A stretch of 64,000 nt of DNA from Turneriella sp. (GCA_965279515.1 CBDIID010000003.1:2496001-2560000), one strand, 5' to 3'; numbered from the stretch's first letter, positions 3,103 to 40,354 are shown. Notes: generated from the letters alone by a model not told the origin. Numbers and translations are program-made.

Positions 3103-3131
3103 TTGACGGTCATGTCTGCCGAAATTAATAT
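3103..3131 (+). promoter_or_regulatory. Sigma70-like promoter of clpC
   Basis: TTGACG-17 nt-TAATAT, 6 nt before the ATG. Confidence 0.55.
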
Positions 3132-3137
3132 ATCCTT

Positions 3138-16598: not shown

Positions 16599-16664
16599 AC
16601 CAAAGGAAGCGGTACAGAGCGCATCCGTGCGCACCGCTTCCCTGATACCTCGTGTACCAAAGGA
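16599..16664 (-). repeat. GGA-loop double-hairpin element, copy A
   Basis: Minus strand: ggtac-ACGAG-gtatc ... ggaagcggt-gcgc-ACGGAT-gcgc-TCTGT-accgcttcc; direct repeat accaaagga at 16599 and 16656. Confidence 0.7.
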
Positions 16665-16671
16665 GCTTAAC

Positions 16672-16992
16672 ATGGAACAAAATGTAAATAAAGTCGTCAG
16701 CTTCGGCATCGGTGCTTATGAGTCTGCCCGCGCAGGCGCTGAAACACTGCTGAAAAACCTCGAAACAGAAATCAACGCGCTCATCTCACAAGGTGAAAGC
16801 GTTAAAAGCGAAAACGCCGTAAAAGTGCGTACAGCCGTAACAGATGCTTCAAAACAAGTTTCTACCCTCGTTGAGCAGGCAAAAGCTCAATACACAGACC
16901 TCAGCGCAAAAGCGCAAAAGGCATTCTCTGACCTGCAAGCTAAGGCGAGCGAACTCGCTGCAAAATTGCCTGTCGGAAAACAAGCAGCTTAA
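16672..16992 (+). CDS. Phasin-like amphipathic helical protein
   Basis: FGIGAY...INALISQGE pattern, Ala/Lys-rich helices, AAGGAG RBS. Confidence 0.65.
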   Translation: MEQNVNKVVSFGIGAYESARAGAETLLKNLETEINALISQGESVKSENAVKVRTAVTDASKQVSTLVEQAKAQYTDLSAKAQKAFSDLQAKASELAAKLPVGKQAA

Positions 16993-17017
16993 GTCTTAAC
17001 GACTTGATCTGGTGGAG

Positions 17018-17045
17018 GCCCTTCCGCAAGGAGGGGCTTTTTTTT
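17018..17045 (+). terminator. Rho-independent terminator
   Basis: gcccttcc-gcaa-ggaggggc followed by a T run. Confidence 0.85.
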
Positions 17046-17505
17046 AGGTTAAACCAATAATCGCGTTACCCGAACAGCCTTCCCAGGTGAACGGAATGAC
17101 GAGCGTAGGCTCAGCCAGCAAGAACTTGAACTCTTCAGGCACTCCGACAAAAACGCTCGGCACTGAAATATCAAAACCGCTGCCGAAATGCACGCGCGCA
17201 TTACCGGCAATCGTATTGGCCATTTCGCCAATCATCGGGATAATATCATCTTCAGCGGGGGTCTGTGTCTCGAGCACAATCGTCACCAGCTTCTCGACAA
17301 GTTTTTTTTCGCAGGTGATAACCAGTCCGCCCTTGTGGCTGCCGGTGATACCGATGTGACCCGTATAATCAAAGAGCGGCTGCCGCGTCGCTTTCATATC
17401 AAGATTATACGGAACACCAAACTCGGGCTTCACCGCTTTGATGCTGAGAAAATACCGCTCGATACATTCGAGCAGCCCCTGAATGTCTTCGGTTTTGATT
17501 TTCAT
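17044..17505 (-). CDS. cheX: CheX-family CheY-P phosphatase
   Basis: DYTGHIGITG, GEMANTIAGN (ExxN), FDISVPSV. Confidence 0.9.
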   Translation of the reverse strand: MKIKTEDIQGLLECIERYFLSIKAVKPEFGVPYNLDMKATRQPLFDYTGHIGITGSHKGGLVITCEKKLVEKLVTIVLETQTPAEDDIIPMIGEMANTIAGNARVHFGSGFDISVPSVFVGVPEEFKFLLAEPTLVIPFTWEGCSGNAIIGLT

Positions 17506-17511
17506 AAGATT

Positions 17512-17575
17512 TCAGTCCGCGACAAAGAGGGCATCCATGCCCGTCGCAGACTAAGCGCCTCCATGCGCATTAATC
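17512..17575 (-). repeat. GGA-loop double-hairpin element, copy B (fills the cheX-cheX spacer)
   Basis: Minus strand: gcgc-ATGGAG-gcgc ttagtctgcgac-gggc-ATGGAT-gccc-TCTTT-gtcgcggactga. Confidence 0.75.
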
Positions 17576-18016
17576 AATCCCCACGACGAGGAAAGCCTGG
17601 TGGCCTTTCCAGTTGATCGGTAATACTACGACGGGTGTTCTAAGAATGATACGGAAATTGTTCGGCTTGCCCTTAAAAATTGTCGGCACCGAGATATTGA
17701 ATTCTGCACCAAAGGAAGTGCGCGCGTTACCGGCAATGGTGTTTGCGATCTCGCCGATCATATCAAAAACCGATTGGTCGTCGACTTCTTCCGTCAGAAG
17801 AATCTTGCGCGTGATTTCTTCGAGCATACCGCGCGAACAAGTGATGTAAAGACCGCCCTTACGGCTGCCTGATATACCTATGTGACCTGAATAATCGAGA
17901 ACGATCTGCTCTGCACCCTTTGTGTAAGGGATATCGAGTTCGGCCTTACTGCCGGTAACTTCTTCAAAATAACTGATCGTTCCGCGGATGAATACCTGAA
18001 TTTCTTCTTCTTTCAT
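17570..18016 (-). CDS. cheX: CheX-family CheY-P phosphatase (second paralogue)
   Basis: DYSGHIGISG, GEIANTIAGN, FNISVPT. Confidence 0.9.
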   Translation of the reverse strand: MKEEEIQVFIRGTISYFEEVTGSKAELDIPYTKGAEQIVLDYSGHIGISGSRKGGLYITCSRGMLEEITRKILLTEEVDDQSVFDMIGEIANTIAGNARTSFGAEFNISVPTIFKGKPNNFRIILRTPVVVLPINWKGHQAFLVVGID

Positions 18017-18062
18017 GATCGGCTCCGGGTTCCCATCTTGGTTTAGATAGCCTCAATAAGCG

Positions 18063-18422
18063 TTAATCCGCAACGACCTGATCAAATGCTTCTTTAATAC
18101 TTTCCGGGGTAAAGGGTTTGCCGAGGAAACTGCGCGCGCCTTTTTTCAACGCCTCGAGCGCTGTGGCTTCGTCTTTGAGCGCCGAAACCACCATCACGCG
18201 GATATCCGGCTTGATTTTAAGAAGTTCTTCGAGGCACTGCAGGCCATCCATCTCGGGCATGGTGATGTCGAGCGTGACCACATCGGGCATCGCTGTCTTG
18301 CACATTTCGACCGCTTGCTTGCCATCGGCAGCGGTGCCGACGATCTCAACGTTAGCGCTGGCGAGATATTTCTCGATAGCCTTGCGCATAATACTCGAGT
18401 CGTCCACAATCATCAGCTTCAT
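18063..18422 (-). CDS. Single-domain CheY-like response regulator
   Basis: MIVDD, DVVTLDITMPEMDG, SA, KPF. Confidence 0.9.
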   Translation of the reverse strand: MKLMIVDDSSIMRKAIEKYLASANVEIVGTAADGKQAVEMCKTAMPDVVTLDITMPEMDGLQCLEELLKIKPDIRVMVVSALKDEATALEALKKGARSFLGKPFTPESIKEAFDQVVAD

Positions 18423-18590
18423 AGGCTTACCTTGAGTCTCTGACAACGGCGTCACCCGTTTTTCCGGTTCAGTTTATACGAGTTAGTGAACTTTTGTGCG
18501 CAAGCCGGGCGACATAATGAATCTTCCGACCGCATGGTTGCGAAAGCACTGAGGTTCTTGCCATGGCACCCTTTACCGTGAAGCTGGCTC

Positions 18591-19169
18591 ATGGCAACCG
18601 CAAGCGAATTACAGAATTTTTTCGGGCCCCTTTTTCCGCTGATCGGTAAATGGGAAGGCGACAAGGGAATGGATGTATCACCCGAAAAAGACGGTGAAGA
18701 AATGTCTCCCTATTTTGAGACCATAACCATCGAGCCTGTCGGTGACGCCACCAATGCCGGAGAGCAAACGCTTGTTGTTCTCGCCTACAAACAAGTTGTC
18801 AGCCGCAAGTCCAACAACCAGGTTTTCCATCACCAAACCGGGTACTGGTATTTTGAGAAAAAAACCGGAGAAATTTTGTATTCGCTGACGATTCCCCGCG
18901 CTGTCTCTGTGCTTGCGAAAGGTAAAGGCGTTCTGAGCGGCGGCAAGATGGAATACAATGTCAAAGCCGATGCTTCCGATAAAAACCACGGCATCATTGA
19001 GTCTGCATTCATGGCAGAGAAAGCCTCAACGCGCAGTTTCTCCATGCAGGTTGTGGTCGAAGGCGACGCTTTGCGCTATAAAATGAATACCGGCCTGCAT
19101 ATCTACGGGCGTGATTTTGACCACAGCGACGAAAACTCGCTGACGCGCAAAGAGCTCGCACACATATAA
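18591..19169 (+). CDS. Nitrobindin/FABP-like haem-binding beta-barrel (DUF1794)
   Basis: GPLFPLIGKWEG, YFETITI, FHHQTGYW, C-terminal His (FDHSD). Confidence 0.8.
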   Translation: MATASELQNFFGPLFPLIGKWEGDKGMDVSPEKDGEEMSPYFETITIEPVGDATNAGEQTLVVLAYKQVVSRKSNNQVFHHQTGYWYFEKKTGEILYSLTIPRAVSVLAKGKGVLSGGKMEYNVKADASDKNHGIIESAFMAEKASTRSFSMQVVVEGDALRYKMNTGLHIYGRDFDHSDENSLTRKELAHI

Positions 19170-19348
19170 ATACACGGTATTTTTCGTCACACCGCCCCTG
19201 ATTTAGTACATTCCGACAGAAGCCGCCAAAGCTATGAATTTTGGTTTTATCTGGGGAGCGGTCCTCATCTAATGCAAAAACTCATGGTCCGGAGGGTTCG
19301 CTGCGCGTAGATTTTTTCTGCGTGCGTAATAAACTATCCGAGGTAAAA

Positions 19349-19963
19349 ATGAAGACAATTTCTAAATTATTTGTATTGGCAGCTGCGGGCCTGGTTCTCG
19401 CTGCCTGCGAAAAGCCCCCTGTAGCTCAAAAAGCCGAAGCCGTATCAACAGCGCCTGTTGCAAAAGCAGAAGGTAAAGAGTACCAGATCGACGCGACTAA
19501 AAGCTCAGTTCTGTGGGTCGGCACCAAAAAAATCGGCAAGCACAACGGCACCATCGCCCTGAAATCGGGTTCTGTGTTCGTTAAAGACGGAGCGATCGTT
19601 GCGGGTAAATTCGTCACCGACATGAAAACACTCGACGACAAAGACATGACGGGCGAAAACCACGACAAACTCGTAAAACACCTCAAAAGCCCTGACTTTT
19701 TCGACGTTGAACAATTCCCCGAAGGCGTTTTCGAAATTACCAGCGTATCAGGCAAGACCATCAACGGTAACCTGACACTCAAAGGTAAACCTTACGGCAT
19801 CAGCTTTGACGCAGATGTGGTATTCGAAAAAGACGCACCGAAAAGCGCGAAGACAACATTCAATATCGATCGTACAAAGTGGGGTATTGTTTATCCGGGT
19901 ATGCCAGACAACCTGATCAACGATACAATCAACCTGACACTCGATCTCAAAATCAAGAAATAA
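19349..19963 (+). CDS. YceI-family lipid/polyisoprenoid-binding lipoprotein
   Basis: LAAC lipobox; HLKSPDFFDVEQFP, GNLTLKG, IDRTKWG. Confidence 0.9.
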   Translation: MKTISKLFVLAAAGLVLAACEKPPVAQKAEAVSTAPVAKAEGKEYQIDATKSSVLWVGTKKIGKHNGTIALKSGSVFVKDGAIVAGKFVTDMKTLDDKDMTGENHDKLVKHLKSPDFFDVEQFPEGVFEITSVSGKTINGNLTLKGKPYGISFDADVVFEKDAPKSAKTTFNIDRTKWGIVYPGMPDNLINDTINLTLDLKIKK

Positions 19964-19985
19964 TCTTCCCTAAGGTTATTTGACG

Positions 19986-20009
19986 AGGGCGGGTAACCGC
20001 CCTTTTTTT
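19986..20009 (+). terminator. Rho-independent terminator
   Basis: agggcgg-gtaa-ccgccct followed by a T run. Confidence 0.85.
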
Positions 20010-20014
20010 ATGCC

Positions 20015-21085
20015 TTAACGAACCAGAAGCTCGTCGAGTGAAAAGATTTCGATTTCCTGCATCTTGCCGCGCACACCCGAATGTTCGACTTTGCGGCATT
20101 TGATGAGATTACCCAATCTGTGGCGCGTATTGCCGTCGATGAGGATATCCACCTTGGCTTCTTTGGTCATCGATTCAAGGCGGCTCGCCGTATTCACGGG
20201 GTCGCCTAACACCGTGTATTCCATGCGCCGCACCGAACCGATATTGCCGGCAAAAACCTTACCCGTAGCAATGCCCATGCCGACGCGAATCGGCTCGATG
20301 ATGTAGTCAGGCCGAACGTCATTGAATGTGGCGAGATGATTGCGAATCTGCAGCGCACATTTGGCCGCGTTCAGCACATCGTTTTCCGTCGGAACCGGGC
20401 AACCGAATGTAGACATGATACCGTCGCCCAGCATCTTGTTCACAGAGCCTTTATTCCCGTAGACAAGATCCATGATGTCGGTGAAAAATTCGCTGAGGAA
20501 TTCGGCAAAAATCTGCGGCTCGAGATTCTCTGCGATCGTTGTCGAGCGGCGTACGTCGAAGAACATAATCGTCGCTTCCTGGTGGCGGCCGCTGAGACTG
20601 TTGGCGTGCTCGTCCTGTAAAATACCTTCGACGATATCTTCGGAAAAATATTTTGTCAAAAGCTTGCGGTCGTTCTTTAGCCGCTGTTTCATCCAGGTCA
20701 GCTCGAGTTTGGCACGTTTGAGTTCGAGCAGATTGGTCAGGCGGTGCGACAGCTCGGTTTTCCCCTGGTCGGTACGCACGACATCGTCGTACTGCGATGC
20801 GCTTGCCCCAGCCGATGCGCTGCTGAGCAATACAAAACTTGCCCCGAACATGTGGCTTGCTTTTTTCAGCTCTTCAAGGCTATCGACCTTCGTTACATAT
20901 TCAGACGAAACGAAAACAAAATCGGGCTTGAGCTCATTCGCTTTCTGCACAGCGGCAACGATGTCGTTCACCGTCGTCAGTTCGCAACCCGTATCGGGCA
21001 AAAGCGGCTGAATGAGATCGCGCTCGTGTTTCTCTCCTTCGACAAGAAGAATTTTGGTAATCTGCGATTCGAGTTCTTCGCTCAT
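20015..21085 (-). CDS. Class III adenylate cyclase with a pseudo-receiver domain
   Basis: FDVRRST, NKMLGDG, EYTVLGDPVNTASRLE; receiver has PDFVFVS where the phospho-Asp is expected. Confidence 0.88.
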   Translation of the reverse strand: MSEELESQITKILLVEGEKHERDLIQPLLPDTGCELTTVNDIVAAVQKANELKPDFVFVSSEYVTKVDSLEELKKASHMFGASFVLLSSASAGASASQYDDVVRTDQGKTELSHRLTNLLELKRAKLELTWMKQRLKNDRKLLTKYFSEDIVEGILQDEHANSLSGRHQEATIMFFDVRRSTTIAENLEPQIFAEFLSEFFTDIMDLVYGNKGSVNKMLGDGIMSTFGCPVPTENDVLNAAKCALQIRNHLATFNDVRPDYIIEPIRVGMGIATGKVFAGNIGSVRRMEYTVLGDPVNTASRLESMTKEAKVDILIDGNTRHRLGNLIKCRKVEHSGVRGKMQEIEIFSLDELLVR

Positions 21086-23667
21086 TTTTTAGCCGCCCCA
21101 TCCGGTAGGAATATTTTAAATTCGCAGAACTTGCCCGCTTCGAAGCTGAGCTCGACCTTTCCGCCGAGTGAGTGCACCTTTTCTTTTATGATGTCCATGC
21201 CGATACCGCGGCCCGCGTTGAGCGTGGTCTGCTCGGCGGTGCTGATGCCCGGGATAAAAATCACACCAGCCACCGTGCCTGCATCCCACTTCGCGACTTC
21301 TTCGGCGGTATATTTGCCGGACTCAATCGCTTTGCGCCGCAGTTTATCGATCTGCAGGCCGCGTCCGTCGTCACGGAAAATCAGTTCGATGCCCGATGCA
21401 GCTTTTCTTGTCGCGAGCTGTATCTTACCTGTCTCGTTCTTGCCGGCCTTTTTCCTGTCTTCGGGGGATTCGAGCCCATGCGACAGGGAATTCCGCGTCA
21501 ATTGAATGAGAATATCCTTCATGAGTTTGCGGTGAGCCGCAGGCACCATGTCAGGATCAAAATCATCGAAGTTGAGTTCGGCCTTCTTGTTCATCTCTGC
21601 GGCGAGCTTCTGCACGTTCGACTCGACTGCGCGCACGAGTAAGTCGACGTTCTTCTTCTCACCGGAGAATGTTGCCTGGAACTGTGTGATACGCTGGATC
21701 AGGGATTTCACCTCGCGCAGTGTCTCTATCATTTCGTTGAGCTTGAGGACCAGCGGCAAGAAGTCCTGACCGCTCAGGTCGGTCTTCTGTTGCAGCTCGC
21801 CGACCTTTTCTTCGTACTCATGCGCTTTACCGGCGAAGAATTTCAGATTGAGAATCGACGCATTGCCCTTGATGGTGTGCATCGCGCGGTAGATGATCGC
21901 GAGTTTTTCCTTGAGTGGCAGGTTTTGGCCGCCCGGCTTTAAGGTCTCGTTGATGAGAGTGATATCCTCTTCCATGTCGGAGATAAACTCGCTCAGCATA
22001 CGCGGTTCAACATGCAGAATGCCGAACAGCATTTCCATCTGGCCGGCGTTCTTTTCTTCGGTCTCTTTCAGTTTTCTGTCAAGCAACACTTGTTTTGTCA
22101 CATCGGTCACGGTCGACATCAGGTGTTTGATGGCACCCTCAGCCATAATCCGCTGGAATTTAAACTGCAGGAATTTTTGTTTAGCGCCGCCCGAACCCTC
22201 GAAGTTAATTTCTGTCTCGCGGAGCGGGTTAATATTATTCATCACCGCTTCTTTGATTTCAGGCTTAAACATGAGCTCGAGATAATCAGTGGTCTTCTTC
22301 ATGGAAGATTCGGGCAGGCCCTTTTTCAGAACCGCGAGAATATCTTTATTCCCGAGCCCCTGGCTTGCAAACATATCTTCCAGCGCCTTCGAATACTGGC
22401 TGCCGATCTTATAGGAATTCCCGTCTTTTTGAACCAGAAAGAGCCCCTGGCCGACAGTATTCATAATCCTGTCGGTTTCTTCTTTTGCCGTGGTGAGAGC
22501 TCCGTTTGCCTGGGATAATTCCGTTGTACGCTCTGCGACCTTCACTTCGAGATTTTCTGCGTAATCTTTGAGCCCCTTCTGGGCATCCCTGAATGCAATC
22601 CGCAACGAGTCGAACATATCAGAAAGAAAACCAATCTCATCTTTTGAAGTTGAAATAATCTGGTGCTCAAGGTTGCCCTGTTTTACCTGTTCGACATCTT
22701 TGACGAGGTGGTTTACCGATCGCGTGAGACCACGCGAGAAAAATACCGCCATGACAAAGGCAAAAATGATACCGCCAATACCGGTAACAATAATGATAAA
22801 TTCGATGCGATAGAGCAGCGCCAGCTGTTTATCTTTAGAAGAGGCGATGATGAATCCCGCCTCGGGTACATTCTCGATGCCCCCCGCGATAGCGAGGTAC
22901 GATTCGCCGCCAACACTCAGCGAAAAAGTCTGTGAATGTTTGCTTTTACCTTCGCCGGTTTCGTTTTGAATTTTATCCTTCACTGTCTGTAAGATCTTCA
23001 CGACATCTGGCGCGAGTTCTTTCGAGAAAGCAGATGCGACGATTTTATCTTTGCTGAAAAAAGTAATGCGGTTACCGCTGAGCTCCTCGATTTTATAGGC
23101 GAACTTATCGCCGACTTCGTTACCCGCGAGCAGAACGGCGTCAGACCCGAGAAGCGGCAATGCCACGAGTTGATACAGTTTTCCATCCTCGTTCCACATG
23201 CCGAGGTAACGGCCATTTTCGACGGTCTTTTGCAGTAGCCCCTGGTACTGGCTGGGTACGGTCTTGCCGAGATTTTCAGGATGGATGCTGTCTATAAGCA
23301 CACGGCCAGAAAAGCTGACTGCCATTAGAAAATCGTATTCCGTGAGTTTTTTGAACCCCGCGGCGATCTTTGCGGAAGTCGCCGGAGCCGCTTTTAGATC
23401 TCGCTGGAAATTCGGGTTTTGAATGAAAAATTGCGTACGCGCGAGTACCTGTTCGAGTTTCGCGTCGTTGAGCTCTATATACGCCGTGGCAGCCGCATCG
23501 AGTTGGGTGAGAATATTCTTATTAACCTGACTGCGCACACCCTGGTCGATGAACAGCAGGCTGACCGCAGACAGAATGAGGACGATCGTAACGATCGCGA
23601 CAAGAATCTTACGCCGAAGGCCTGCCTGAGACAGGCCCTCGATGAGCGCTCTAATATTCTTTGTCAT
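21082..23667 (-). CDS. Membrane sensor kinase: TM-Cache-like-TM-HAMP-(PAS-like)-Hpt-CheA-type HATPase, no CheW domain
   Basis: HAMP (SKDEIGFLSDMF), Hpt YRAMHTIKG, RNSLSHGLE, DDGRGL, GRGIGMD; ends right after the HATPase. Confidence 0.85.
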   Translation of the reverse strand: MTKNIRALIEGLSQAGLRRKILVAIVTIVLILSAVSLLFIDQGVRSQVNKNILTQLDAAATAYIELNDAKLEQVLARTQFFIQNPNFQRDLKAAPATSAKIAAGFKKLTEYDFLMAVSFSGRVLIDSIHPENLGKTVPSQYQGLLQKTVENGRYLGMWNEDGKLYQLVALPLLGSDAVLLAGNEVGDKFAYKIEELSGNRITFFSKDKIVASAFSKELAPDVVKILQTVKDKIQNETGEGKSKHSQTFSLSVGGESYLAIAGGIENVPEAGFIIASSKDKQLALLYRIEFIIIVTGIGGIIFAFVMAVFFSRGLTRSVNHLVKDVEQVKQGNLEHQIISTSKDEIGFLSDMFDSLRIAFRDAQKGLKDYAENLEVKVAERTTELSQANGALTTAKEETDRIMNTVGQGLFLVQKDGNSYKIGSQYSKALEDMFASQGLGNKDILAVLKKGLPESSMKKTTDYLELMFKPEIKEAVMNNINPLRETEINFEGSGGAKQKFLQFKFQRIMAEGAIKHLMSTVTDVTKQVLLDRKLKETEEKNAGQMEMLFGILHVEPRMLSEFISDMEEDITLINETLKPGGQNLPLKEKLAIIYRAMHTIKGNASILNLKFFAGKAHEYEEKVGELQQKTDLSGQDFLPLVLKLNEMIETLREVKSLIQRITQFQATFSGEKKNVDLLVRAVESNVQKLAAEMNKKAELNFDDFDPDMVPAAHRKLMKDILIQLTRNSLSHGLESPEDRKKAGKNETGKIQLATRKAASGIELIFRDDGRGLQIDKLRRKAIESGKYTAEEVAKWDAGTVAGVIFIPGISTAEQTTLNAGRGIGMDIIKEKVHSLGGKVELSFEAGKFCEFKIFLPDGAAKK

Positions 23668-24319: not shown

Positions 24320-24457
24320 TTCCCCTCCGGAATTGAATAATAGGACACGTCACCCGGACGCCTTCCGGGTTACAATCTTTTTTTGTGGAAAAATAGGCTG
24401 TTTTAGCTATACCAACGAAAACATTTACGCCCGGCCATGGCTTTAGAGCGGTGACCC

Positions 24458-26155
24458 ATGATCCAAAGCAACTACTTCACCGATAATACTGACCTGCAGC
24501 AACAGTTCCATGAAATCGTCGACTGGAATGAAATCATCGCCACTTACGAAAACGGTTTTGCCGACGCGGCCGAATTCCAGAAAAGTAAAAATCCGCGCCT
24601 CGAAATGGCGCCGTCGTCGAATGAAGAGGCCCTGCAATATTACAAAGAGATTCTGCATTCGGCGGGCGAGATTGCCGGCAAGCATGTCTCGCAGGCCGCG
24701 CGCGACATCGACCGCGAGGGTTTAAGATTTGAAAACGGCAATGTCACACATCCACAGAAGATGATGGATGTGATTAACAAATACCGCGAAGCGGGATTAC
24801 CCCCGATCGCGTTTCGGCGCCAGTACGGCGGCCTGGGTTTGCCCAGCGTCATCAAGGCATTGGCTTCCGAACTCATGTATCGCGGCGACACTTCCACAAC
24901 GATTGCCATGGGCAGCATGGGTCTCGCCGGCATTCTCGAAAAACACGCCTCCGAAGAAGCCAAACAAAAGTGGATTCCTAAACTCATCAGTGAAAATTAC
25001 TGCGTGGCGATGGGACTCTCCGAACCCGACTTTGGCTCCGACCTGCCCTCTGTTCGCACAAAGGCCGTGAAACGCGACGGCAAATGGTATCTCACGGGCA
25101 CCAAACGTTTTCAAACCGTTGCCTGCGGCCTCAACGGCGGCCCGGCGATCATGCTCGCGCTCGCGCGCACCGGCGAAGGTTCGGGCGGCGCACGGGGGTT
25201 ATCCTTCTTTATAGTGGAACGCAAAGACTACAAGATCACCGGCATCGAAAAAAAGCTGGGATTAAAAGCTTCGGCAACCTGTGAAGTCGCGCTCGAAGAC
25301 TCGCCGGGCGAACTTGTGGGCCAGGAAGGTTATGGCCTCGTGCGTTATGTCATCGGCATGCTGAACGGCGCGCGCATGGGCATCGCCGCGCAGGGTGTCG
25401 GCATCTCCACAGGCGCGTACATGGAAGCGAAAAAGTACGCCTCTGAACGCATCCAGTTCGGCAAACCCATCGACCAGATTCCCGCCGTGGCGCGCATGCT
25501 GTCGCGTATGGAACGCGAGATTGCGGCGATGCGTTGCCTCATGATCGAGGGTGCCTCGATCGTCGACCGCTACCAGTGCCCCGAGTTCAGCGGCAAGGTC
25601 AGCGAAGACTCGAAATTCTGGGAAAAAATCGCCAACACGCTGACTCCCATTTCGAAGTATTATAATTCCGAAATGTGCAATGAGCTCGTCGACGATGCGC
25701 TGCAGGTATTCGGTGGTTCGGGTTATACCGAAGACTATGACCTCGCCCGCCTCTACCGCGACGCACGCATCACGAACATCTATGACGGCACGACGCAGAT
25801 CCAGGTCAATGCAGCGATAGGCGGAGTGATCGCCGGCATGGCGCCCCATGGCCAGTGGCGGCAATACCTCGATTCATTGACAGAGCTTGTCGGCAAAAAT
25901 GAAACCATCGCTGAGATTCGTGCCCGGTTTGAAGACGTGGTAGAAGCGTGGCGCAAGTTCGAGGCGCGTGAAGTTAAAGAGGGCATGTCATTCGAAGTCG
26001 TCGAGTCCGCGGCGCGGCTAGTCAACAGCCTGCTACTCGAAAAGGCTGCGCTCAGGGCAAAAAATCCCGAAGCGCGCAAGAAACTCAACCGCGAGTACCA
26101 TATCGACTCGCTGGCGATTGTGACGGGAAATGGGATCAGGCTGAGGGCGGCGTAG
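24458..26155 (+). CDS. Acyl-CoA dehydrogenase
   Basis: MGLSEPDFGSDL, EKKLGLKASAT, ERIQFGKPI, QVFGGSGY, RDARITNIYDGT. Confidence 0.92.
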   Translation: MIQSNYFTDNTDLQQQFHEIVDWNEIIATYENGFADAAEFQKSKNPRLEMAPSSNEEALQYYKEILHSAGEIAGKHVSQAARDIDREGLRFENGNVTHPQKMMDVINKYREAGLPPIAFRRQYGGLGLPSVIKALASELMYRGDTSTTIAMGSMGLAGILEKHASEEAKQKWIPKLISENYCVAMGLSEPDFGSDLPSVRTKAVKRDGKWYLTGTKRFQTVACGLNGGPAIMLALARTGEGSGGARGLSFFIVERKDYKITGIEKKLGLKASATCEVALEDSPGELVGQEGYGLVRYVIGMLNGARMGIAAQGVGISTGAYMEAKKYASERIQFGKPIDQIPAVARMLSRMEREIAAMRCLMIEGASIVDRYQCPEFSGKVSEDSKFWEKIANTLTPISKYYNSEMCNELVDDALQVFGGSGYTEDYDLARLYRDARITNIYDGTTQIQVNAAIGGVIAGMAPHGQWRQYLDSLTELVGKNETIAEIRARFEDVVEAWRKFEAREVKEGMSFEVVESAARLVNSLLLEKAALRAKNPEARKKLNREYHIDSLAIVTGNGIRLRAA

Positions 26156-26158
26156 CAA

Positions 26159-27619
26159 CTATGGCCAGCCGGTAGTCGTACCGCAGATATTTGCAGTTCC
26201 TGAACAAGGGCCTGTTGTCAGCGAGGTTGATAGGGCTTCACCCTCAAGCGCTTTAAGGAAATTCACCAGATCTTCCATTTCCTCATTCGTCATATGGCGC
26301 GTCGTGAGAATTGTATCTTTAGTACCCGGGAAGTTTCCTGCATTTCCTGCAAAGTTATAAAAATTTGCGACGTCCCAGAGACTCGAAAAAGTTCCATTAT
26401 GAAAGTATGGCGGGGTTTTGTTAACGGACCTTAATGTCGGCGTTTTAAACGCTCCGGTATCTGAGGTAGCTGCGGTCAAACTACTAACCTTATCGGTTGC
26501 GGCACCAGATGAATCGAAGGTAGTTGTCGTATTAAAGGCTCCGTTATCCGCAACACTCTTGAGCTTTTCAATACCCGAAAACCGCCCTTGATCGTTCGAA
26601 CCTGACAAGCCACCAACCTGTGGTACTCCTAAGTTATGAAATTTACCATCTGAAAAATTACTTCCACTATGGCACCGGATACAATTCCCCTTACCAATAA
26701 ATATCTTCAGACCACGTTTTTGTGAAACGCTCATGGCATCTTCATTTCCATTCGCCCATTGATCAAAGGAAGAGTTCTTAGAAACTAACTTGCGCTCATA
26801 GGCGGCTATAGCCTTGCCAAAATTTGCAAACATGGTATTCACGTGTACTTCATTGGCAGCACTCAGGCTATCAAAAGTAGTCGTACCGGTAATCAGGTTA
26901 CCACTGGTATCGTAATGTTTACCGTAAGAATTGGTTGACGTTGGCTGGCAATTAGTCGCTCCATTGTTACATAAGGTATCTAGGACTACGGAAGTTTGAA
27001 GCGGGCAAAGCGCTGTAGTTTCAGGCGTTGAGACTCCGCCGCCAAAAACGTTTATATATTCATCGTGATATACAGTATTTTTGCAAATGACCCAAGCCAC
27101 CCCCATTCTGCCAAAGTTTTGGGGATTACCCTCAATAGCGGGTCTTGCCACAGCCCAAACAGAGTCTGCAGAGCCGTCCCATAAAGAATACGTATTGTGC
27201 GCTGTGTTCAAAATAGTCGGACTATTTCGCGAAGTAAAATTTGCGCCTAAAGAAACATCATTGGGTTTCGAAGTATTATCCGCCCAACCAAAACTGGGGT
27301 TGTGGCAGGTGACGCAGCTTATTTTCCTTTCCTGAGCGACAGAAAAATCCGTGCTTGAATTGGCGGGTGTTGTCGTTCTGTTTCCAGTGATAGATATTGA
27401 TCCCGAAAACTGTCTATCCCAGAAAAATTTCTGTCCTAATGTCGCGGCGGTATCGCTCTGATCAAAATTATTCGTCGGATCATCCGGCGGATCGGTATAA
27501 ATCAGGGTCTTGATTATTTCCCTATCCGTATCCGAAAAAAGCACATCCCCGTCGTCCTGTGTCGCGCAAGCCGACAGCAGCAAAAGGGCCGCAGATGATA
27601 CCAGTAGTTTTTTCTTCAT
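26159..27619 (-). CDS. Di-haem cytochrome c peroxidase/MauG-family lipoprotein
   Basis: LSAC lipobox; CVTCH, RNSPT, WDG, CIRCH, FKTPTLR...PYFHNG. Confidence 0.9.
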   Translation of the reverse strand: MKKKLLVSSAALLLLSACATQDDGDVLFSDTDREIIKTLIYTDPPDDPTNNFDQSDTAATLGQKFFWDRQFSGSISITGNRTTTPANSSTDFSVAQERKISCVTCHNPSFGWADNTSKPNDVSLGANFTSRNSPTILNTAHNTYSLWDGSADSVWAVARPAIEGNPQNFGRMGVAWVICKNTVYHDEYINVFGGGVSTPETTALCPLQTSVVLDTLCNNGATNCQPTSTNSYGKHYDTSGNLITGTTTFDSLSAANEVHVNTMFANFGKAIAAYERKLVSKNSSFDQWANGNEDAMSVSQKRGLKIFIGKGNCIRCHSGSNFSDGKFHNLGVPQVGGLSGSNDQGRFSGIEKLKSVADNGAFNTTTTFDSSGAATDKVSSLTAATSDTGAFKTPTLRSVNKTPPYFHNGTFSSLWDVANFYNFAGNAGNFPGTKDTILTTRHMTNEEMEDLVNFLKALEGEALSTSLTTGPCSGTANICGTTTGWP

Positions 27620-27629
27620 ACCATCCCCC

Positions 27630-29105: not shown

Positions 29106-29107
29106 AG

Positions 29108-29689: not shown

Positions 29690-29778
29690 GGCGGCAAGCG
29701 TACATTCGTGGGTGCATAGGACAAGCCTTTTTCCCGATTAGCAGCCCGGATTTTGTGCACAGTTGTTACGACATGAAT

Positions 29779-32973: not shown

Positions 32974-33060
32974 CGTTTAACCTGCAGTGAAGACGAAGCT
33001 CGTCGTGTCAACGGCGAAAAGTGGTTGTGTGTGCCAAGGCCAGTATGCCTTAGGCCCCTT

Positions 33061-35201: not shown

Positions 35202-35237
35202 AAAAACGGCCCACCATCATCCGATGGTGGGCTTTTC
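35201..35237. terminator. Bidirectional terminator-like hairpin
   Basis: A run-gcccaccatc-atcc-gatggtgggc-T run. Confidence 0.75.
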
Positions 35238-35321
35238 AGTGAGACAACATGAAGGCGGAATCCGTGGGCAACTCCGCCGAGCTATTCACCCTCAAGCAAA
35301 GAGCATGCCATTTCCTTTGCC

Positions 35322-35410
35322 CGCCCCCATCCCAAAGTCTGGGGGAAGGGCGCAGTGAAACTCTTTCTCCCCTTGCCCCGGACTCGGGGAAAGGGGCCGG
35401 GGGTTAGGGG
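35322..35410. repeat. Two C/G-run REP-like palindromes
   Basis: cgcccccatccc...gggggaagggcg and ccccttgccccg-gact-cggggaaagggg-ccgggggttagggg. Confidence 0.55.
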
Positions 35411-35462
35411 CGTTCGGACAATATCTCCTCGACGCATTGTTCAGATTTTTACGCCTGCAAGC

Positions 35463-36392
35463 ATGTCGGAACTTGTCCCCAGCGACCTGCGCACAGATAT
35501 CACTAAGTGGGTCGTCGGTCTCGGAACCCGGTTCGCCTTCAATGAGCGCACGCCTCTGCCAATGTTGCGCAAGCTCATCGATCAGATTGGCCTCATCGCG
35601 CGGCCCGCGCCTGAATGCGAATTGCAGCAGGGCACAATCGATACGATCGCTTATGATTTCTGGACACCGGCAAAACTCGCACCGGGCCGCCTGATTATCT
35701 ATAGCCATGGCGGTGGTTATACCATGTTCTCGCGGCGCACGCACCGCGGCCTCGCCTCGCGGCTGGCGCAGGAACTCGAGGCGCAGGCGATCGTCTATGA
35801 CTACCGGCTGGCGCCGGAGCACAAATTTCCCGCGGCTATCGACGATGCGCTCATCGTTTACAGGCATGTGCTGGCCCTCGGTTTTGATCCTGAAAAAATT
35901 ATTTTTGCGGGCGATTCGGCGGGTGGCGGCATCACCTTCGCACTCATGCTCGCTGCGCGTGACGCCGGCCTGCCTCTGCCGGGGCTGGCTATCGGCCTTT
36001 CGCCCTGGGTTGATATGACAGCATCGGGTTTCAGTATGCGTGAAAATGCCGACAAGGATGTCATGTTAAAACCAGGCGGCATCGCAAAATTTGCGGTGAA
36101 GTATCTGGGTGGGGCAGAGCCGCGGCACCCGTATGCATCCCCCCTCTTTGCCGACCTGAAGGGATTGCCGCCCGTGATGCTGCAGGCCGCGGGGGATGAA
36201 ATTCTGCGCGACGACTCGGTGCGTCTCGCCGCGGCTTTACGCGAAGCCGGGGTCAGGGTAGAACTCGATGTCTGGCCTGGTCTCTTTCATGTCTTTGAGT
36301 TCGCCTGGCGCTGGTTACCACAGGCCGAAGAAGGAATGCGCAAAATCGGTGAATTTGCGCACCGCCACTTCGCGAGCGCCAAAAAAAAGTAA
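35463..36392 (+). CDS. HSL-family alpha/beta hydrolase (esterase)
   Basis: HGGG, YRLAPEH, GDSAGG, E.LRDD, H. Confidence 0.92.
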   Translation: MSELVPSDLRTDITKWVVGLGTRFAFNERTPLPMLRKLIDQIGLIARPAPECELQQGTIDTIAYDFWTPAKLAPGRLIIYSHGGGYTMFSRRTHRGLASRLAQELEAQAIVYDYRLAPEHKFPAAIDDALIVYRHVLALGFDPEKIIFAGDSAGGGITFALMLAARDAGLPLPGLAIGLSPWVDMTASGFSMRENADKDVMLKPGGIAKFAVKYLGGAEPRHPYASPLFADLKGLPPVMLQAAGDEILRDDSVRLAAALREAGVRVELDVWPGLFHVFEFAWRWLPQAEEGMRKIGEFAHRHFASAKKK

Positions 36393-36484
36393 CAAGCCGT
36401 CACCGTACGGGCGGGTTTCGGACATTTTTTACTTGTGCCGTTACGGTAACTTTGGTTTCGGTGCGTGTGCATGAACCGACGGCT

Positions 36485-37564
36485 ATGTCGCAGCCCGATA
36501 CTTTCATCGAGCATTATGAGCGAAAAATCCACAGCCAAAAGCAGCTCATTGAGCTTTCCAAAGCCCTCAATTCAAACCTCGACCTCAAGTCGCTGATTGA
36601 TTCGATTCTGAACGTCAGTATTGCGCAGAGCCGCTGCCTGCAGGCCGGTATTTATCTCGTACCTGAAATCGACCACCATGGGCTGGTGCTCAACGAAAAC
36701 TTTGTCGGCTTCGAAATTACCGACGCCGACGACTTTACGATTCCTTATAAGAGTGATCTTGTGAAACTGCTGTCGGAGTACCCAACGCTGCTGACGCTCG
36801 CTGAAATCAAAAACATCGCCGCGGCGACCGACCATTCGAGTCTCGCGCAAGTCAATTACCGCGATGCCGTGCTGCAGCTCTCGCGGCTCAACGACAGGCT
36901 ATTGCTGATTCCGCTCAAGGCCAAGGGGCGTATCAACGGCATTCTTGTCATGGGCCCCAAGTCTGACGGTGAAGAATATCTCGCAGAAGAAAAAGCCTTT
37001 GTCTCTGACCTCGCTTCGCTGGCGGCTATTGCGGTTGAAAACGCACGGCTCTATGAACTCGCGACGGTTGATATGATGACGAAACTCAAGATCCATCATT
37101 TCTTTCAGACCCGGCTGCGTGAAGAAATGGAAGTGGCGCGCGAGAACGGACAGCCGCTGAGCCTGCTTTTGACCGATATCGATCATTTTAAAAAATTCAA
37201 CGACAGCTATGGCCACCAGATCGGCGATCTTGTACTCAAGGAAGTCGCCAAGGTGCTCATCAACACCGCGCGGGGTAAAGACATCGCCGCGCGTTATGGC
37301 GGCGAAGAATTTGCCCTCATTGCGCCGGGGCGTGACCTCGCTGCCGCCCGCGCGATCGCAGAAAAGTACCGCGAACGTATTGAAAAGCTTGCGGTTAAAA
37401 ATCCCACCAACAAGGGCGACAAGCAGCTGAAGGTGACAGTCTCTGTTGGTGTGGCAACCTTTGACCCGGCTGCCGACCAGGAGAACAAACATATTATCGA
37501 GCGCACCGACCAGGCGCTCTATGCCGCAAAACATGCGGGCAGAAACCGCGTAGAAGTCAAATAG
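36485..37564 (+). CDS. GAF-GGDEF diguanylate cyclase
   Basis: DIDHFKKFNDSYGH, RGKD I-site, RYGGEEF. Confidence 0.92.
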   Translation: MSQPDTFIEHYERKIHSQKQLIELSKALNSNLDLKSLIDSILNVSIAQSRCLQAGIYLVPEIDHHGLVLNENFVGFEITDADDFTIPYKSDLVKLLSEYPTLLTLAEIKNIAAATDHSSLAQVNYRDAVLQLSRLNDRLLLIPLKAKGRINGILVMGPKSDGEEYLAEEKAFVSDLASLAAIAVENARLYELATVDMMTKLKIHHFFQTRLREEMEVARENGQPLSLLLTDIDHFKKFNDSYGHQIGDLVLKEVAKVLINTARGKDIAARYGGEEFALIAPGRDLAAARAIAEKYRERIEKLAVKNPTNKGDKQLKVTVSVGVATFDPAADQENKHIIERTDQALYAAKHAGRNRVEVK

Positions 37565-37651
37565 TCACCAGCCTTGCCGGCAACCTCGGGATATTCATCG
37601 AATCCCTGTGGTTTTCCTTGACGCCCCCATTTCAATACGAAGTTGAGCAGC

Positions 37652-38104
37652 ATGGCTGAACTCAGCAAAGACATTGTTGGCCGCAAAATGGATCCTTTCA
37701 CGTTCACCGTCGAACGCGGCAAAGTGAAGGAATTTCTCCAGGCAATCGGCGAAAAGAACCCCATTTATTGGGACATTACTGCCGCGAAAGCCGCAGGCTA
37801 CAGCGACACTCCCGTTCCCCTGACATTCCAGACTGCATTTACCTTCTGGGGTTACGGCGATAAATTCTGGACCGACATCGAATCTTTCGGCATCGATACC
37901 AAACGCCTGCTCCACATGAAAGAAGAATATACCTACCTCGAGCCGATTTACCCAGGCACGACTGTCACCTGCCAGGTTGAAGTCATCGACGTCAAGGTCG
38001 GTAAAATGAATATGGTAACTTTCAAGAATACTTACAGTGACGGTAAAGGCAAGGCCTTCATCGAAGCCGAGATGGCCATTGTCATCCGCCCGGAGGGTAT
38101 GTGA
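37652..38104 (+). CDS. MaoC-like dehydratase partner subunit (HadA-like)
   Basis: VERGKVKEF..AIGE.NP.Y, P.P.TF. Confidence 0.8.
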   Translation: MAELSKDIVGRKMDPFTFTVERGKVKEFLQAIGEKNPIYWDITAAKAAGYSDTPVPLTFQTAFTFWGYGDKFWTDIESFGIDTKRLLHMKEEYTYLEPIYPGTTVTCQVEVIDVKVGKMNMVTFKNTYSDGKGKAFIEAEMAIVIRPEGM

Positions 38105-38138
38105 CAGGATGTCACTTAGTCGACGAGCCACGGATGGC
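38101..38138 (+). repeat. GGA-loop double-hairpin element, variant copy D
   Basis: gtgac-AGGAT-gtcac ttagtcgacga gcc-ACGGAT-ggc immediately before an AAGGAG RBS. Confidence 0.6.
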
Positions 38139-38155
38139 GTAAGGAGACATGTAAT

Positions 38156-38575
38156 ATGAGTAAAATCCAATTTGCAGCCGTGACCGAAGGTCAGGATATT
38201 CCCGAGCTGCGTGTCGGCCCGATTCAGCAGATGGACCTCGTGCGTTATGCCGGGGCATCGGGTGATTTCAACCCGATCCACAACGATAACGAATTCGCAA
38301 AATCTGCGGGGCTTCCCGGCACGATTGCCCACGGTATGTACATCATGGCGCTCATGGGTCGTCTCGTGACCAACTGGGCGAGCCCGGCACAGGTGAAATA
38401 TTACGGTGTTAAGTTCAAAGGCATGAGCCTTCCCGGTGAAACAATGGTTTTCACCGGCAAAGTTAAAAAGAAAAAAGAGGAGAACGGCGAGAAACTCATC
38501 ATGGTATCATTGACCGCCGCAAACGACAAAGGTGAAGTCAAAGTCGCGGGCGATTTGACCGTAAAAGCGGAATAA
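38156..38575 (+). CDS. MaoC dehydratase catalytic subunit (HadB-like)
   Basis: YAGASGDFNPIH...IAHGM. Confidence 0.88.
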   Translation: MSKIQFAAVTEGQDIPELRVGPIQQMDLVRYAGASGDFNPIHNDNEFAKSAGLPGTIAHGMYIMALMGRLVTNWASPAQVKYYGVKFKGMSLPGETMVFTGKVKKKKEENGEKLIMVSLTAANDKGEVKVAGDLTVKAE

Positions 38576-38592
38576 GTTTCGTCTAAAACAAT

Positions 38593-38922
38593 ATGGACAT
38601 ATCATTCGCAGATGTAGGCAACCACAAAGTGGTTCGGGTTATGGGCGATGTCGACCTCTATAACGTCGGCGACCTCAAACGCTCTGTTTTCGAACTTATC
38701 GACGAGGGCGAAGTTCAGTCGCTCATCATCGATATGGCGAATGTCAACTATATCGACTCCTCTGGCGTAGGCGCCCTGGTTGCCGCACAGAAGAAGATGA
38801 AAACACAGGGTGGCAAGTTTGGCCTGATGAGTCTTACCGAAGACGTTCTGAATATTCTCAAACTCGCGACGCTCGACCAGTTCTTCAAAATCTACGAAGG
38901 CGAAGCGCAGCTGCCCCAATAG
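38593..38922 (+). CDS. STAS anti-sigma-factor antagonist
   Basis: GDVDLYN, IDMANVNYIDSSGVGAL. Confidence 0.92.
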   Translation: MDISFADVGNHKVVRVMGDVDLYNVGDLKRSVFELIDEGEVQSLIIDMANVNYIDSSGVGALVAAQKKMKTQGGKFGLMSLTEDVLNILKLATLDQFFKIYEGEAQLPQ

Positions 38923-38931
38923 GGGATTTTC

Positions 38932-40008
38932 ATCAAAAAGATCAACACCGTCGCCCTGATTTATGGCGGCCAATCCGGCGAGCATGAAGTCTCGTGCATT
39001 TCGGCCACCTATCTCGAACAGACCATCGCCGAAGCCGGCTTCACGCCCATTGCAGTCTATGTAGACCGTGCGGGTATCTGGCACTGGCAAGACCGTGTGC
39101 ATAAGTTGCCGGCAGAGAACCTCGCAAACCCGGCGACAATTTCACGGCTTGCCAACGGCGTCACATTGCGTTCGGCTTCCAATGCAGTCATACTCGATTT
39201 CGCCTTCCCGATCATCCATGGGCCTGCAGGCGAAGACGGTTCGCTGCAGGGTTACTTTGAGGTTGTAGGATTACCCTATGCGGGAACAGGCGTCGCTTCG
39301 TCGGCAGTCTGTATGGACAAGGCCCTGATGCGCGCGCTTTTCGCCGTCAATGCGATTCCCCAGGTGAGATATTTTACGATCCAGAATCCCCTCAGCGCAG
39401 ACACGCGCGCGCTCGACGAACAGATTATTGCAGCCTTTGGTTATCCGGTCTTTATCAAACCCTGCAACATGGGCAGCTCTGTGGGAGTCCATAAGGTAAA
39501 AGACAAATCGGGCCTCGCAGCCGCGCTCGCCGATGCCGGGCGCTTCGACGACCACCTGCTCTGCGAAGAGGGTTTGAACGTGCGCGAACTCGAGATCGCT
39601 GTCGCGGGTAACTTTCCCCGCTACATCACCTCAGGCGTGGGTGAAATTCAGGTACACCACGAATTCTATTCGTATGAGGCCAAATACCTCGACCCCAAGG
39701 GCGCGGATCTCTTCCTGAAGGCGCCGATTTCGGACGAGATGGAACGCCAGATCCAGGCGCTTGCGGCAAAGGCTTTTTCCGCAGTGCGCGGCGACGGCTT
39801 TGCGCGCATCGATTTTTTTCTCGATAAAGATTCGGGAAAGCTCTATCTCAATGAAATCAATACCCTGCCGGGTTTCACTCCCATCAGCATGTTCCCCCAG
39901 CTCTTCAAGGCCGCCGGTGAATCGGGCGCCTCGATCACCCGCAAGATTATCGACTGGGGAGCCGAACGCTGCGCACGGCTGATGAGCCTGCGCGCCTCAG
40001 CGCGCTAG
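38932..40008 (+). CDS. ddl: D-alanine--D-alanine ligase (start uncertain, ATC/ATT proposed)
   Basis: In-frame ALIYGGQSGEHEVS upstream of the ORF-track start; HGPAGEDG, KP...GSSVG, YSYEAKY, NEINTLPGFT. Confidence 0.92.
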   Translation: MKKINTVALIYGGQSGEHEVSCISATYLEQTIAEAGFTPIAVYVDRAGIWHWQDRVHKLPAENLANPATISRLANGVTLRSASNAVILDFAFPIIHGPAGEDGSLQGYFEVVGLPYAGTGVASSAVCMDKALMRALFAVNAIPQVRYFTIQNPLSADTRALDEQIIAAFGYPVFIKPCNMGSSVGVHKVKDKSGLAAALADAGRFDDHLLCEEGLNVRELEIAVAGNFPRYITSGVGEIQVHHEFYSYEAKYLDPKGADLFLKAPISDEMERQIQALAAKAFSAVRGDGFARIDFFLDKDSGKLYLNEINTLPGFTPISMFPQLFKAAGESGASITRKIIDWGAERCARLMSLRASAR

Positions 40009-40009
40009 C

Positions 40010-40354
40010 ATGGCGGGGCAGTTCACACTTTCATACCATTACTTCAGGCAACGCGACAGCCGCAACCACCTCGAACTTTTCCTGGATACCGACGGGATAT
40101 CCCCCTTGCAGACCTGGCGTTGTTTTGAGGGCAAGGCGCGCCGGCGACGTTTTGTTGCCGCACCCGATCACCGCCGGGTTTACCTCACCTTTTCGGGCGC
40201 GGTGAGCGAAAACCGCGGGCGCCTGCGTATTCTGCGCAAAGGGAAATTCATTGACCGAAGGACAGGAGGTCTGTGGTCATCGGGTGGCATGGATGCCACT
40301 CTTACCGATGACCGAAGGACAAGACGCGGCGACGCCATCATGGTAGGCTTATGA
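40010..40354 (+). CDS. Small protein resembling stand-alone LigD 3'-phosphoesterase-like domains
   Basis: HLELFL...LQTW...PDHRRVYL.FSG.VS.NRG pattern. Confidence 0.45.
   Translation: MAGQFTLSYHYFRQRDSRNHLELFLDTDGISPLQTWRCFEGKARRRRFVAAPDHRRVYLTFSGAVSENRGRLRILRKGKFIDRRTGGLWSSGGMDATLTDDRRTRRGDAIMVGL
40252..40321 (+). repeat. GGA-loop double-hairpin element, copy C, in-frame in a CDS
   Basis: gac-AGGAG-gtc tgt ggtcatcgg-gtggc-ATGGAT-gccac-TCTTA-ccgatgacc; 13-bp direct repeat tgaccgaaggaca at 40252 and 40309. Confidence 0.8.

Follow-up and report, generated by a model that had tools for sequence, protein, structure and literature searches.

An apparently undescribed mobile repeat of Turneriella that is kept by its fold

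Introduction

Do the small double hairpins with GGA-type loops that are scattered over a Turneriella genome regulate genes, or do they move between them? The question is raised by a stretch of 64,000 nucleotides from Turneriella sp. (GCA_965279515.1, CBDIID010000003.1:2496001-2560000), here called the window, in a genome of 4.9 Mb with 53% GC (G000; relatives are numbered G001 onwards, and L numbers denote extracted loci). The sequence-only reading of the window had offered both answers: a structure-defined, non-autonomous mobile element, or a regulatory RNA module placing paired CsrA-type sites near genes. Copies across the genome, covarying stems, empty orthologous sites and the lack of an Rfam family at cut-off uphold the first. 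The unit is apparently an undescribed, structure-defined mobile repeat of Turneriella with relatives across the spirochaetes, and the probability that it is mobile is put at about 0.9.

Structure and covariation of the unit

The unit consists of a first hairpin (H1, about 5 bp, with a 5- or 6-nt loop A-N-(G)-G-A-N), a linker of 2-3 nt, and the helices P2 (9 bp) and P3 (4 bp). P3 carries the loop ANGGAN and is followed by a 3' bulge within the long stem and by a short linker. With a bulge TCYNN the unit measures 57 bp, with a 2-nt bulge 54 bp. A distance of 20 nt separates the two loops in 40 of 50 copies; in the others it is 19 or 21 nt.

The family is not a chance pattern. A scan for hairpin 2 found 27 sites with the loop A.GGA. 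versus 0-3 for nine control loops, and a fixed-geometry score retrieved 50 copies from the genome versus 0 and 1 from the reversed and the complemented main contig. With the family model R1, at least 78 copies match at an E value of 0.01 or less (150 candidates scored), bearing out the expectation of genome-wide copies above background.

As the earlier reading had noticed, stems that differ in their letters still pair. In 38 copies, 88.3% of the stem cells are paired versus 60.6% after shuffling, with 197 two-sided changes versus 60, and shifting the stem partners abolishes the covariation signal. Among 103 distinct copies from relatives, 93.4% are paired versus 65.9% shuffled, in an alignment fitted to the model. 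Mean column identity of the copies is 61%. The family is kept by its fold rather than by its letters: the stems covary strongly, and loops, bulge and spacing are fixed. Since it is conserved by shape, sequence-based repeat finders undercount it.

A strand-neutral finder, which scores G.T and A.C alike and accepts second loops of GGA or GA type only, identified 148 distinct copies, in which G.T mismatches number 61 and A.C mismatches 18 (p 1e-6). This excess indicates that the structure matters on the GGA strand, as RNA or as single-stranded DNA (ssDNA). Folding z values for the GGA strand of three intact copies are -2.3 to -4.0 as RNA and -3.7 to -4.4 as DNA; the opposite strands give similar values, so folding alone does not choose the strand. 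An inverted copy of the flanking repeat had been said to permit a second fold. That alternative fold does exist, being the RNA minimum-energy fold of copies 1 and 3, in which the inner arm pairs with the downstream repeat; the inverted copy itself is just the 5' arm of the long stem, whose partner in pairing is necessarily the 3' end of the same unit. A basal stem or three-way junction was ruled out, as the upstream and downstream flanks of 50 copies have no excess pairing diagonal.

Empty sites and insertion within genes

For the reverse comparison, 93 loci around copies in relatives were used, of which 59 have an orthologous site in the window genome; 55 pairs remained after four duplicate records were dropped. 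The site is empty in the window genome in 46 pairs and filled in nine. Thirty of the empty pairs fall in coding sequence and represent roughly 22 sites, as one duplicate remains and several share a site. Alignment of the flanks of these 30 pairs gave a length difference that is a multiple of three in 26 and exactly 57 bp in ten, and 29 read through in frame (in the last, the other strand was the one taken). Five of the coding pairs sit, judged by translation, at one adenylate-cyclase-like site. A loop of a cyclase-like gene (around 4332720 on G000:C3; L055, L114, L115, L119 and L147), without any unit in the window genome, contains between one and three units in five relatives and is either an insertion hot spot or an old array.

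Proteins of the window genome are in turn longer than those of relatives at filled sites. RecF has 19 additional residues compared with five of five relatives, ThiC 18-19 compared with three of four (the fourth has a similar insert), AroA 17 compared with two of four (of the other two, one is filled and one intermediate) and Dxs 13-14 compared with five of five.

Copies within the window

The features of the window are as follows.

16605-16658, minus strand: core of copy 1, antisense to each of its neighbours, a PAP2 gene and a phasin-like gene
16656-16664, minus strand: upstream direct repeat of copy 1, 9 bp, perfect, 57 bp from its partner
16599-16607, minus strand: downstream direct repeat of copy 1, 9 bp
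16672-16992, plus strand: phasin-like gene adjoining copy 1 (Pfam match below cut-off)
17515-17569, minus strand: core of copy 2, between two cheX genes, sense, beginning at the stop codon of the first
17570-17575 and 17512-17517, minus strand: degenerate repeats of copy 2, 4 of 6 positions matching, 58 bp apart
17570-18016 and 17044-17505, minus strand: two tandem cheX genes with copy 2 between them
38096-38154, plus strand: decayed copy that has lost the 3' arm of its long stem, with a FAS1-type dehydratase gene on one side and a MaoC gene on the other
40259-40313, plus strand: core of copy 3, in frame in the C-terminal part of the open reading frame (ORF) 40010-40354
40252-40264, plus strand: upstream direct repeat of copy 3, 13 bp, perfect, host coding sequence (codons ...DRR)
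40309-40321, plus strand: downstream direct repeat of copy 3, 13 bp, 57 bp from its partner
40010-40354, plus strand: ORF hosting copy 3, conserved hypothetical, 114 aa, no Pfam or NCBIfam match

Reading of the sequence located the three main copies with the loops (ACGAG, ATGGAG, AGGAG; ACGGAT, ATGGAT), bulges (TCTGT, TCTTT, TCTTA) and repeats first reported, including the 57-bp spacing of the perfect repeats of copies 1 and 3 and the 58-bp spacing of the degenerate ones of copy 2. R1 scores the three at 55-67 bits, though all of them belonged to its training set.

Copy 1 comprises H1 (5 bp, pentaloop), a 2-nt linker, a 9-bp P2, a 4-bp P3 with an ACGGAT loop and a 5-nt 3' bulge. Its upstream repeat overlaps, on the other strand, the Shine-Dalgarno-like AAGGAG of the phasin-like gene. 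In G001 the spacer at this site is 90 bp instead of 147, exactly 57 bp less, and the repeat is present once; an empty site with a single repeat, as the sequence-only reading would have it, is thus at hand. A diverged copy with compensatory changes in P2 and P3 occupies the site in G011, and G002, G003 and G009 have remnants, judged by eye to be decayed.

At copy 2, the cheX genes abut (gap of -4 to +5 bp versus 64 bp here) in all ten relatives with both genes. Downstream of the copy, a 10-bp near-duplication at 17505-17514 appears to restore the start of the second cheX. The variant once listed at 38101-38138 as a fourth copy does belong to the family, but it is decayed, scoring 15 bits with R1 and 21.9 bits (E 0.007) with R2, a model built on the 54-bp, 2-nt-bulge variant present in the window genome. 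It is a 50-bp insert flanked by 6-bp near-repeats (38099-38104 and 38149-38154); the spacer is 1 bp in 6 of the 11 relatives shown, and a related insert is found in G008. Site 3 is empty in G009 and otherwise holds two different-looking lineages of copies, one in G001 and G008 and one in the window genome, G006 and G011, the copies of G006 and G011 being decayed or truncated.

Junction, arrays and proposed movement

Flanking direct repeats had been put forward as a family feature; long ones are not general. They reach at least 8 bp in 23 of 97 single copies (versus 1.1% of mismatched pairs) and have 4 bp or less in 60. Ranging from 1 to 18 bp, they are copy-specific and overlap the stems, and their excess is centred on the junction between the P2 foot and H1. 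In nine clean empty pairs, the match to the empty site passes from the upstream to the downstream flank near CC at the P2 foot, the two sharing a few bases. Among 45 cores of the window genome, H1 is found upstream only in 31, on both sides in eight, on neither in six and downstream only in none; with no permuted copy among the 45, the opening point is fixed. Another H1 follows 57 units.

In 25 of 40 units, versus 16 expected, the arm that precedes P3 is as long as the one that follows the bulge (p 5e-5, r 0.43; one unit per array or locus). Equal arm lengths are needed only if the ends of the unit meet, which points to a dumbbell, and folding of units in circular mode does give dumbbells. Two kinds of array occur, near-identical (0-4 differences) and mixed, and one array runs A-B-A-B. 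Of the 33 pairs of adjacent units, nine show 10-16 differences over 37 positions and 2-5 compensatory double changes; random family members differ at a mean of 14.3 of 37, like the units of mixed arrays. The mixed arrays are read here as repeated insertion into a junction that each copy would regenerate.

Based on these features, the element may move as one folded single strand whose ends meet, i.e. a closed dumbbell capped by a loop on either side. A protein acting in trans would recognise the loops and the bulge, open the unit at the one fixed junction between P2 foot and H1, and insert it into targets that match this junction over a few bases, mostly 2-7 bp around CC and sometimes 9 bp or more. 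Such insertion at microhomology would yield the direct repeats, each copy would thereby become a target for the next, giving mixed arrays, and slippage could then expand units or delete them precisely. Selection for movement would keep the stems paired while their letters drift, and lengths of 54 and 57 would let copies survive in genes. The chemistry leans towards an ssDNA intermediate resembling that of IS200/IS605 or REPIN elements. This combination of a folded single strand, a fixed junction, a trans-acting protein and insertion at microhomology is given slightly better than an even chance.

The choice of target might also be read from the unit. Copies with GGAG or GGAAG at the P2 foot were seen by eye to lie on the reverse of ribosome-binding sites, and several with TTAG there sit at stop codons, so that the arm seems, by eye, to match the kind of target. 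A bolder and rather doubtful version would be a minimal replicon, a 54-57-nt closed dumbbell of RNA or ssDNA that would be capped on both sides by CsrA-type loops, bear its own target guide in an arm and insert through strand exchange at the fixed junction, helped by an unrecognised host or phage protein; it would be the core of a superfamily including TwoAYGGAY. An origin of copies in place, by copying of the target into the stem, was considered unlikely: the junction keeps a mismatched internal loop and loci share stem subfamilies.

Position and orientation of the copies

Placement was counted for 85 copies, the union of R1 and R2 matches in the window genome, using crude in-house gene calls. 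Forty-three fall within predicted coding sequence, 28 in sense and 15 in antisense orientation (p 0.07), in all three sense and all three antisense frames and in functionally unrelated genes. The 42 others are sense to both neighbours in 13 cases, antisense to both in 16 and mixed in 13, so that 31 of 85 are antisense to their host gene or to both neighbours. Intergenic copies (27 of 78) are enriched relative to the 13% of non-coding DNA, which is attributed to purifying selection in genes. The two replication strands are used alike (leading to lagging 37:41), without bias.

Three of the 85 copies abut tRNA 3' ends in sense. At one locus (G000:C3, around 1513120-1513310; L079), the tRNA-Arg(TCG) gene is followed by a duplicate of its 3' half, which has two element copies, one within it and one at its end. 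Elsewhere (G000:C3:2239085-2239149; L074), a different structured intergenic repeat encloses a copy whose first hairpin is degenerate.

Search for a partner enzyme

A partner of the HUH or IS110 type flanked by the motif had been anticipated; it was sought at Y1-HUH and IS110 loci and not found. Among the 14 Turneriella genomes, Y1-HUH genes occur in 12, reverse transcriptase (RT) genes in six, IS110 in three (none in the window genome), GIY-YIG genes in all 14 and PDDEXK_2 in none. No copy at E < 0.1 flanks 23 Y1 loci of 12 genomes, and none of 29 GIY-YIG loci carries the element. The four tyrosine recombinases of the window genome are not flanked by it either, and the nearest copy to its one serine recombinase is about 27 kb away, judged by distance only.

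The candidate genes have surroundings of their own. Short Y1-HUH genes across the genus (G000:C3:2616152-2616472, L056; L225-L244) have long perfect palindromes in their flanks, centred on GGGTTTAAACCC, GGGCTTAAGCCC or GAATTAATTC; these form a separate REP-like system. A Y1-HUH gene lies in G002, G003 and G008 at a site matching window positions around 26155-26206, which is empty in the window genome. Short Ssn-like GIY-YIG genes of several genomes (L296-L302, L310-L313), none of them in the window genome, are likewise flanked by palindromic repeats of their own. The only GIY-YIG match of the window genome lies in a 670-aa frame, which is presumably UvrC-like given its size. Lastly, an ATPase/nuclease gene faces a 511-aa RT gene (G000:C3, around 1298270-1301780; L266:275-2128, plus strand, and 2241-3776, minus strand). 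This pair, below all NCBIfam cut-offs, is retron- or DRT-like.

Weighing the explanations

Several observations weigh against the mobile ssDNA dumbbell favoured here. Copies share descent, so the covariation and arm-length tests overstate significance and their figures are not probabilities. The relatives are only about 70-82% identical and breakpoints are noisy, with nine of the 46 empty pairs reading cleanly, and gain is not always separable from loss. Some orthologous copies persist across species with compensatory changes, as at site 1 in the window genome and G011, which is unlike a dead insertion unless the copy was replaced. Neither a circle nor an excision joint nor a transcript was seen; the contigs of four sequencing runs held no joint skipping or circularising copies 1 or 2, but contigs drop rare variants and are uninformative here. 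Around 35 Y1-HUH, RT, IS110 and csrA loci there was a single weak R1 match (E 0.28), and around 34 GIY-YIG, tyrosine-recombinase and RT loci none, with R1 only. Transposition of ssDNA from the lagging strand, as in IS608, would predict a replication-strand bias, and its absence is not as such a process would have it. Both the loops, which follow the consensus of an RNA-binding protein, and the three tRNA-abutting copies (0.02 expected) hint at RNA.

The loops do match the CsrA consensus, as first claimed. In 119 of the 148 distinct copies both fit A(N)GGAX on a stem closed by C-G, and loop 2 fits A(N)GGAX in 141; 23 first loops break the rule, and intact copies with ACGAN loops, lacking GGA, occur. 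A csrA gene is present in the genome. A 5- or 6-nt loop on a C-G pair is the rule for RsmE binding (PMC4005645), and Leptospira CsrA binds a GGA hexaloop, with the consensus RUACARGGAUGU (PMC8668096). Once transcribed, sense copies probably bind CsrA. From such binding one may build a host-selected regulatory module, in which paired sites in leaders and intergenic regions tune translation or soak up CsrA and mobility is incidental. The 20-nt spacing of consensus loops, the intergenic enrichment, the sites filled across species (9 of 55 pairs) and the proposal of TwoAYGGAY as a Csr sponge (PMC4333381) would fit it. Most sites, however, are species-specific (46 of 55 empty in the window genome) and the host genes are functionally unrelated. 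Nor do the copies occupy the places where CsrA sites belong, which are on the transcribed strand, either close to a ribosome-binding site or within a dedicated small RNA: 43 of 85 are coding and 31 antisense, and in the window itself copy 1 runs antisense to the gene on either side and copy 3 falls within an ORF. With about half of the copies inside genes, in both orientations, the element does not place CsrA sites near genes, contrary to what had been suggested, and position and orientation together argue against a host regulatory purpose. The module is regarded as very improbable.

RNA could instead serve movement itself, the unit being bound at its loops by a CsrA-like protein, excised or circularised, and returned by reverse transcription or RNA-templated repair at microhomology. 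The CsrA-like loops with their size and C-G closure, the csrA gene and the hexaloop binding in Leptospira all suit this route; the G.T bias is as compatible with RNA as with ssDNA, rolling-circle copying would suit the near-identical arrays, and the copies at tRNA ends and the 28:15 lean of coding copies are towards sense. It is countered by RT genes in 6 of 14 genomes (5 of 9 near-complete ones) versus the element in 14 of 14, by the retron-like setting of the single RT of the window genome, with no copy nearby, by the 15 antisense coding copies, and by the first loops that break the rule in otherwise intact copies. An RNA intermediate is a minority possibility. Spread and homogenisation of the unit might also need no enzyme of its own, if slippage, short-patch recombination and template switching at hairpins sufficed. 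The many near-identical arrays, the one A-B-A-B array, precise 57-bp losses between direct repeats, which fit slippage, and the failure to find a partner enzyme are in line with this. Template switching would, however, erase the bulge and would not conserve two loop sequences, and insertion at new loci with 2-7 bp of homology, the fixed opening (no permuted copy among 45) and the mixed arrays speak for specific recognition. Such enzyme-free dynamics are considered improbable.

Distribution

R1 found 19-71 copies per genome in all 14 Turneriella genomes, none in 20 other genomes of the order, including six of the same family, and three weak carriers among 140 other genomes of the phylum. R2 matched in 14 of 149 other spirochaete genomes, with 1-10 matches each, and in none of 16 genomes of family f8. 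The two loops, the spacing and the bulged stem are retained in the 23 R2 loci inspected by eye. A strict pattern applied to all GTDB species returned 15 stretches, all titled Turneriella, Leptospiraceae or Spirochaetota (the nearest records possibly excluded), and no match in viral contigs. The MaoC protein of the window falls into a 90% cluster together with Turneriella proteins. In metagenomes, a pattern search gave 20 stretches, seven with the full structure, two of which resemble the window genome; one that does not resemble it carries flbB, a spirochaete gene. Most of the 38 neighbours that copies have in other spirochaetes are housekeeping genes, and one copy lies inside a PDDEXK_2 gene.

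Some related structures were also encountered. On an unrelated metagenome contig (L210:70-1380), the linker of a pyruvate-dehydrogenase E2-type protein contains an 18-residue repeat that two 54-bp units encode. Metagenome contigs of 42-47% GC (L207, L213, L220, L221) hold a three-hairpin GGA repeat that has the P3 hairpin and the 2-nt bulge in common with the unit and for which Rfam gave a weak PrrB/RsmZ match alone (25.7 bits, cut-off 44). At L267:1-450 (G079:C312), three tandem units with AT-rich spacers have a 2-nt-bulge double hairpin inside a tRNA-like 5' segment. The ten matches in G022 (L277, L283, L289, L291, L293, L295) belong to a larger repeat of about 230 bp, in which two unlike double-hairpin units are combined; it is nested with further palindromic repeats and lies between housekeeping genes.

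Significance

The comparison of filled and empty sites is direct evidence that a GGA-loop double hairpin is mobile, which bears on the connection of mobility with regulation, called 'unresolved' in a 2026 preprint on TwoAYGGAY that reports copy-number variation (10.64898/2026.09.22.753630). Across the genus, the element adds loops of 13-19 aa to housekeeping enzymes, a source of protein variation like that of the Rickettsia elements but kept by shape. The unit is short enough for synthesis, and one of its arms appears to hold the target preference; identification of the protein responsible for movement could reveal a new insertion chemistry with a programmable target. If an RNA intermediate bound by CsrA were true, the unit would be a viroid-sized bacterial retro-element recruiting a global regulator for its movement.

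Comparison with known systems

In the window, Rfam searches at E up to 5 gave two unrelated weak matches only, and in 36 further loci (18 + 18) no family matching the element. The literature searched holds no description of the Turneriella family; subscription journals, the supplement of the 2026 preprint (variants of other phyla) and the additional files of Weinberg 2010 were outside its scope, and in the accessible text of the preprint Spirochaetota are mentioned once, for another system. By the tests made, the unit is a member of none of TwoAYGGAY, Rickettsia palindromic elements (RPE), REPIN and SDR.

REP, REPIN and BIME repeats with RAYT, and the ends of IS200/IS605, resemble it in having two hairpins, a proposed single-stranded intermediate and clusters that arise by insertion into or beside copies (PMC3116915). 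REPINs, however, adjoin a RAYT gene, are extragenic and are conserved in sequence, whereas half of the Turneriella copies are intragenic and the Y1 genes have other palindromes. The small dispersed repeats (SDR) of cyanobacteria are likewise very small, possibly mobile and composed of tandem units (PMC2884548). At about 20 bp they are less than half as long as the Turneriella unit, which has a bulge besides its two GGA loops. Elhai et al. reportedly described, in 2008, insertion in frame and a compensatory structure for SDR. Ssn-related motifs are hairpin repeats too, recognised as single-stranded DNA by Ssn GIY-YIG nucleases (PMC11893778), but the short GIY-YIG genes of the genus are flanked by other palindromes and none of the 29 GIY-YIG loci has the element. 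Classical miniature inverted-repeat transposable elements share with the unit its non-coding nature, dispersal and empty orthologous sites; the ends of the unit, by contrast, are not inverted copies of each other and it has no target-site duplication of fixed length.

RPE resemble it in behaviour, as hairpin repeats found in frame in unrelated metabolic genes (PMC10969869). This parallel holds for in-frame insertion into the unrelated housekeeping genes recF, thiC, aroA and dxs and for the 29 of 30 pairs read through. RPE are about 150 bp long and encode a conserved peptide, whereas the Turneriella unit has 54-57 bp, is read in several frames on both strands, is conserved in structure and not in sequence, and forms arrays.

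The closest family is TwoAYGGAY (RF01731), a motif listed in Weinberg 2010 (PMC2864571) and extended in the 2026 preprint, for which CsrA binding has been proposed (PMC4333381). Two hairpins with AYGGAY-type loops, one short and one long, are common to both; TwoAYGGAY, too, is multi-copy with a variable copy number, and its mobility is suspected. Positions 48-110 of the TwoAYGGAY model, its core, align to a 54-bp copy with 24.4 bits versus a gathering cut-off of 43. None of its six matches in the window genome reaches 43 bits, and it gave no match in the window at E up to 5 and none in the 36 further loci. A strict AYGGAY loop (ACGGAT, ATGGAT, ACGGAC or ATGGAC) is found as loop 2 in 71 and as loop 1 in 29 of the 148 copies, the rest being other ANGGAN or ANGAN loops. 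Compared with TwoAYGGAY, the Turneriella unit is without a basal stem and has a conserved 3' bulge, broader loops and a length that is a multiple of three; it occurs in head-to-tail arrays and not in divergent doublets, and its empty sites are demonstrated.

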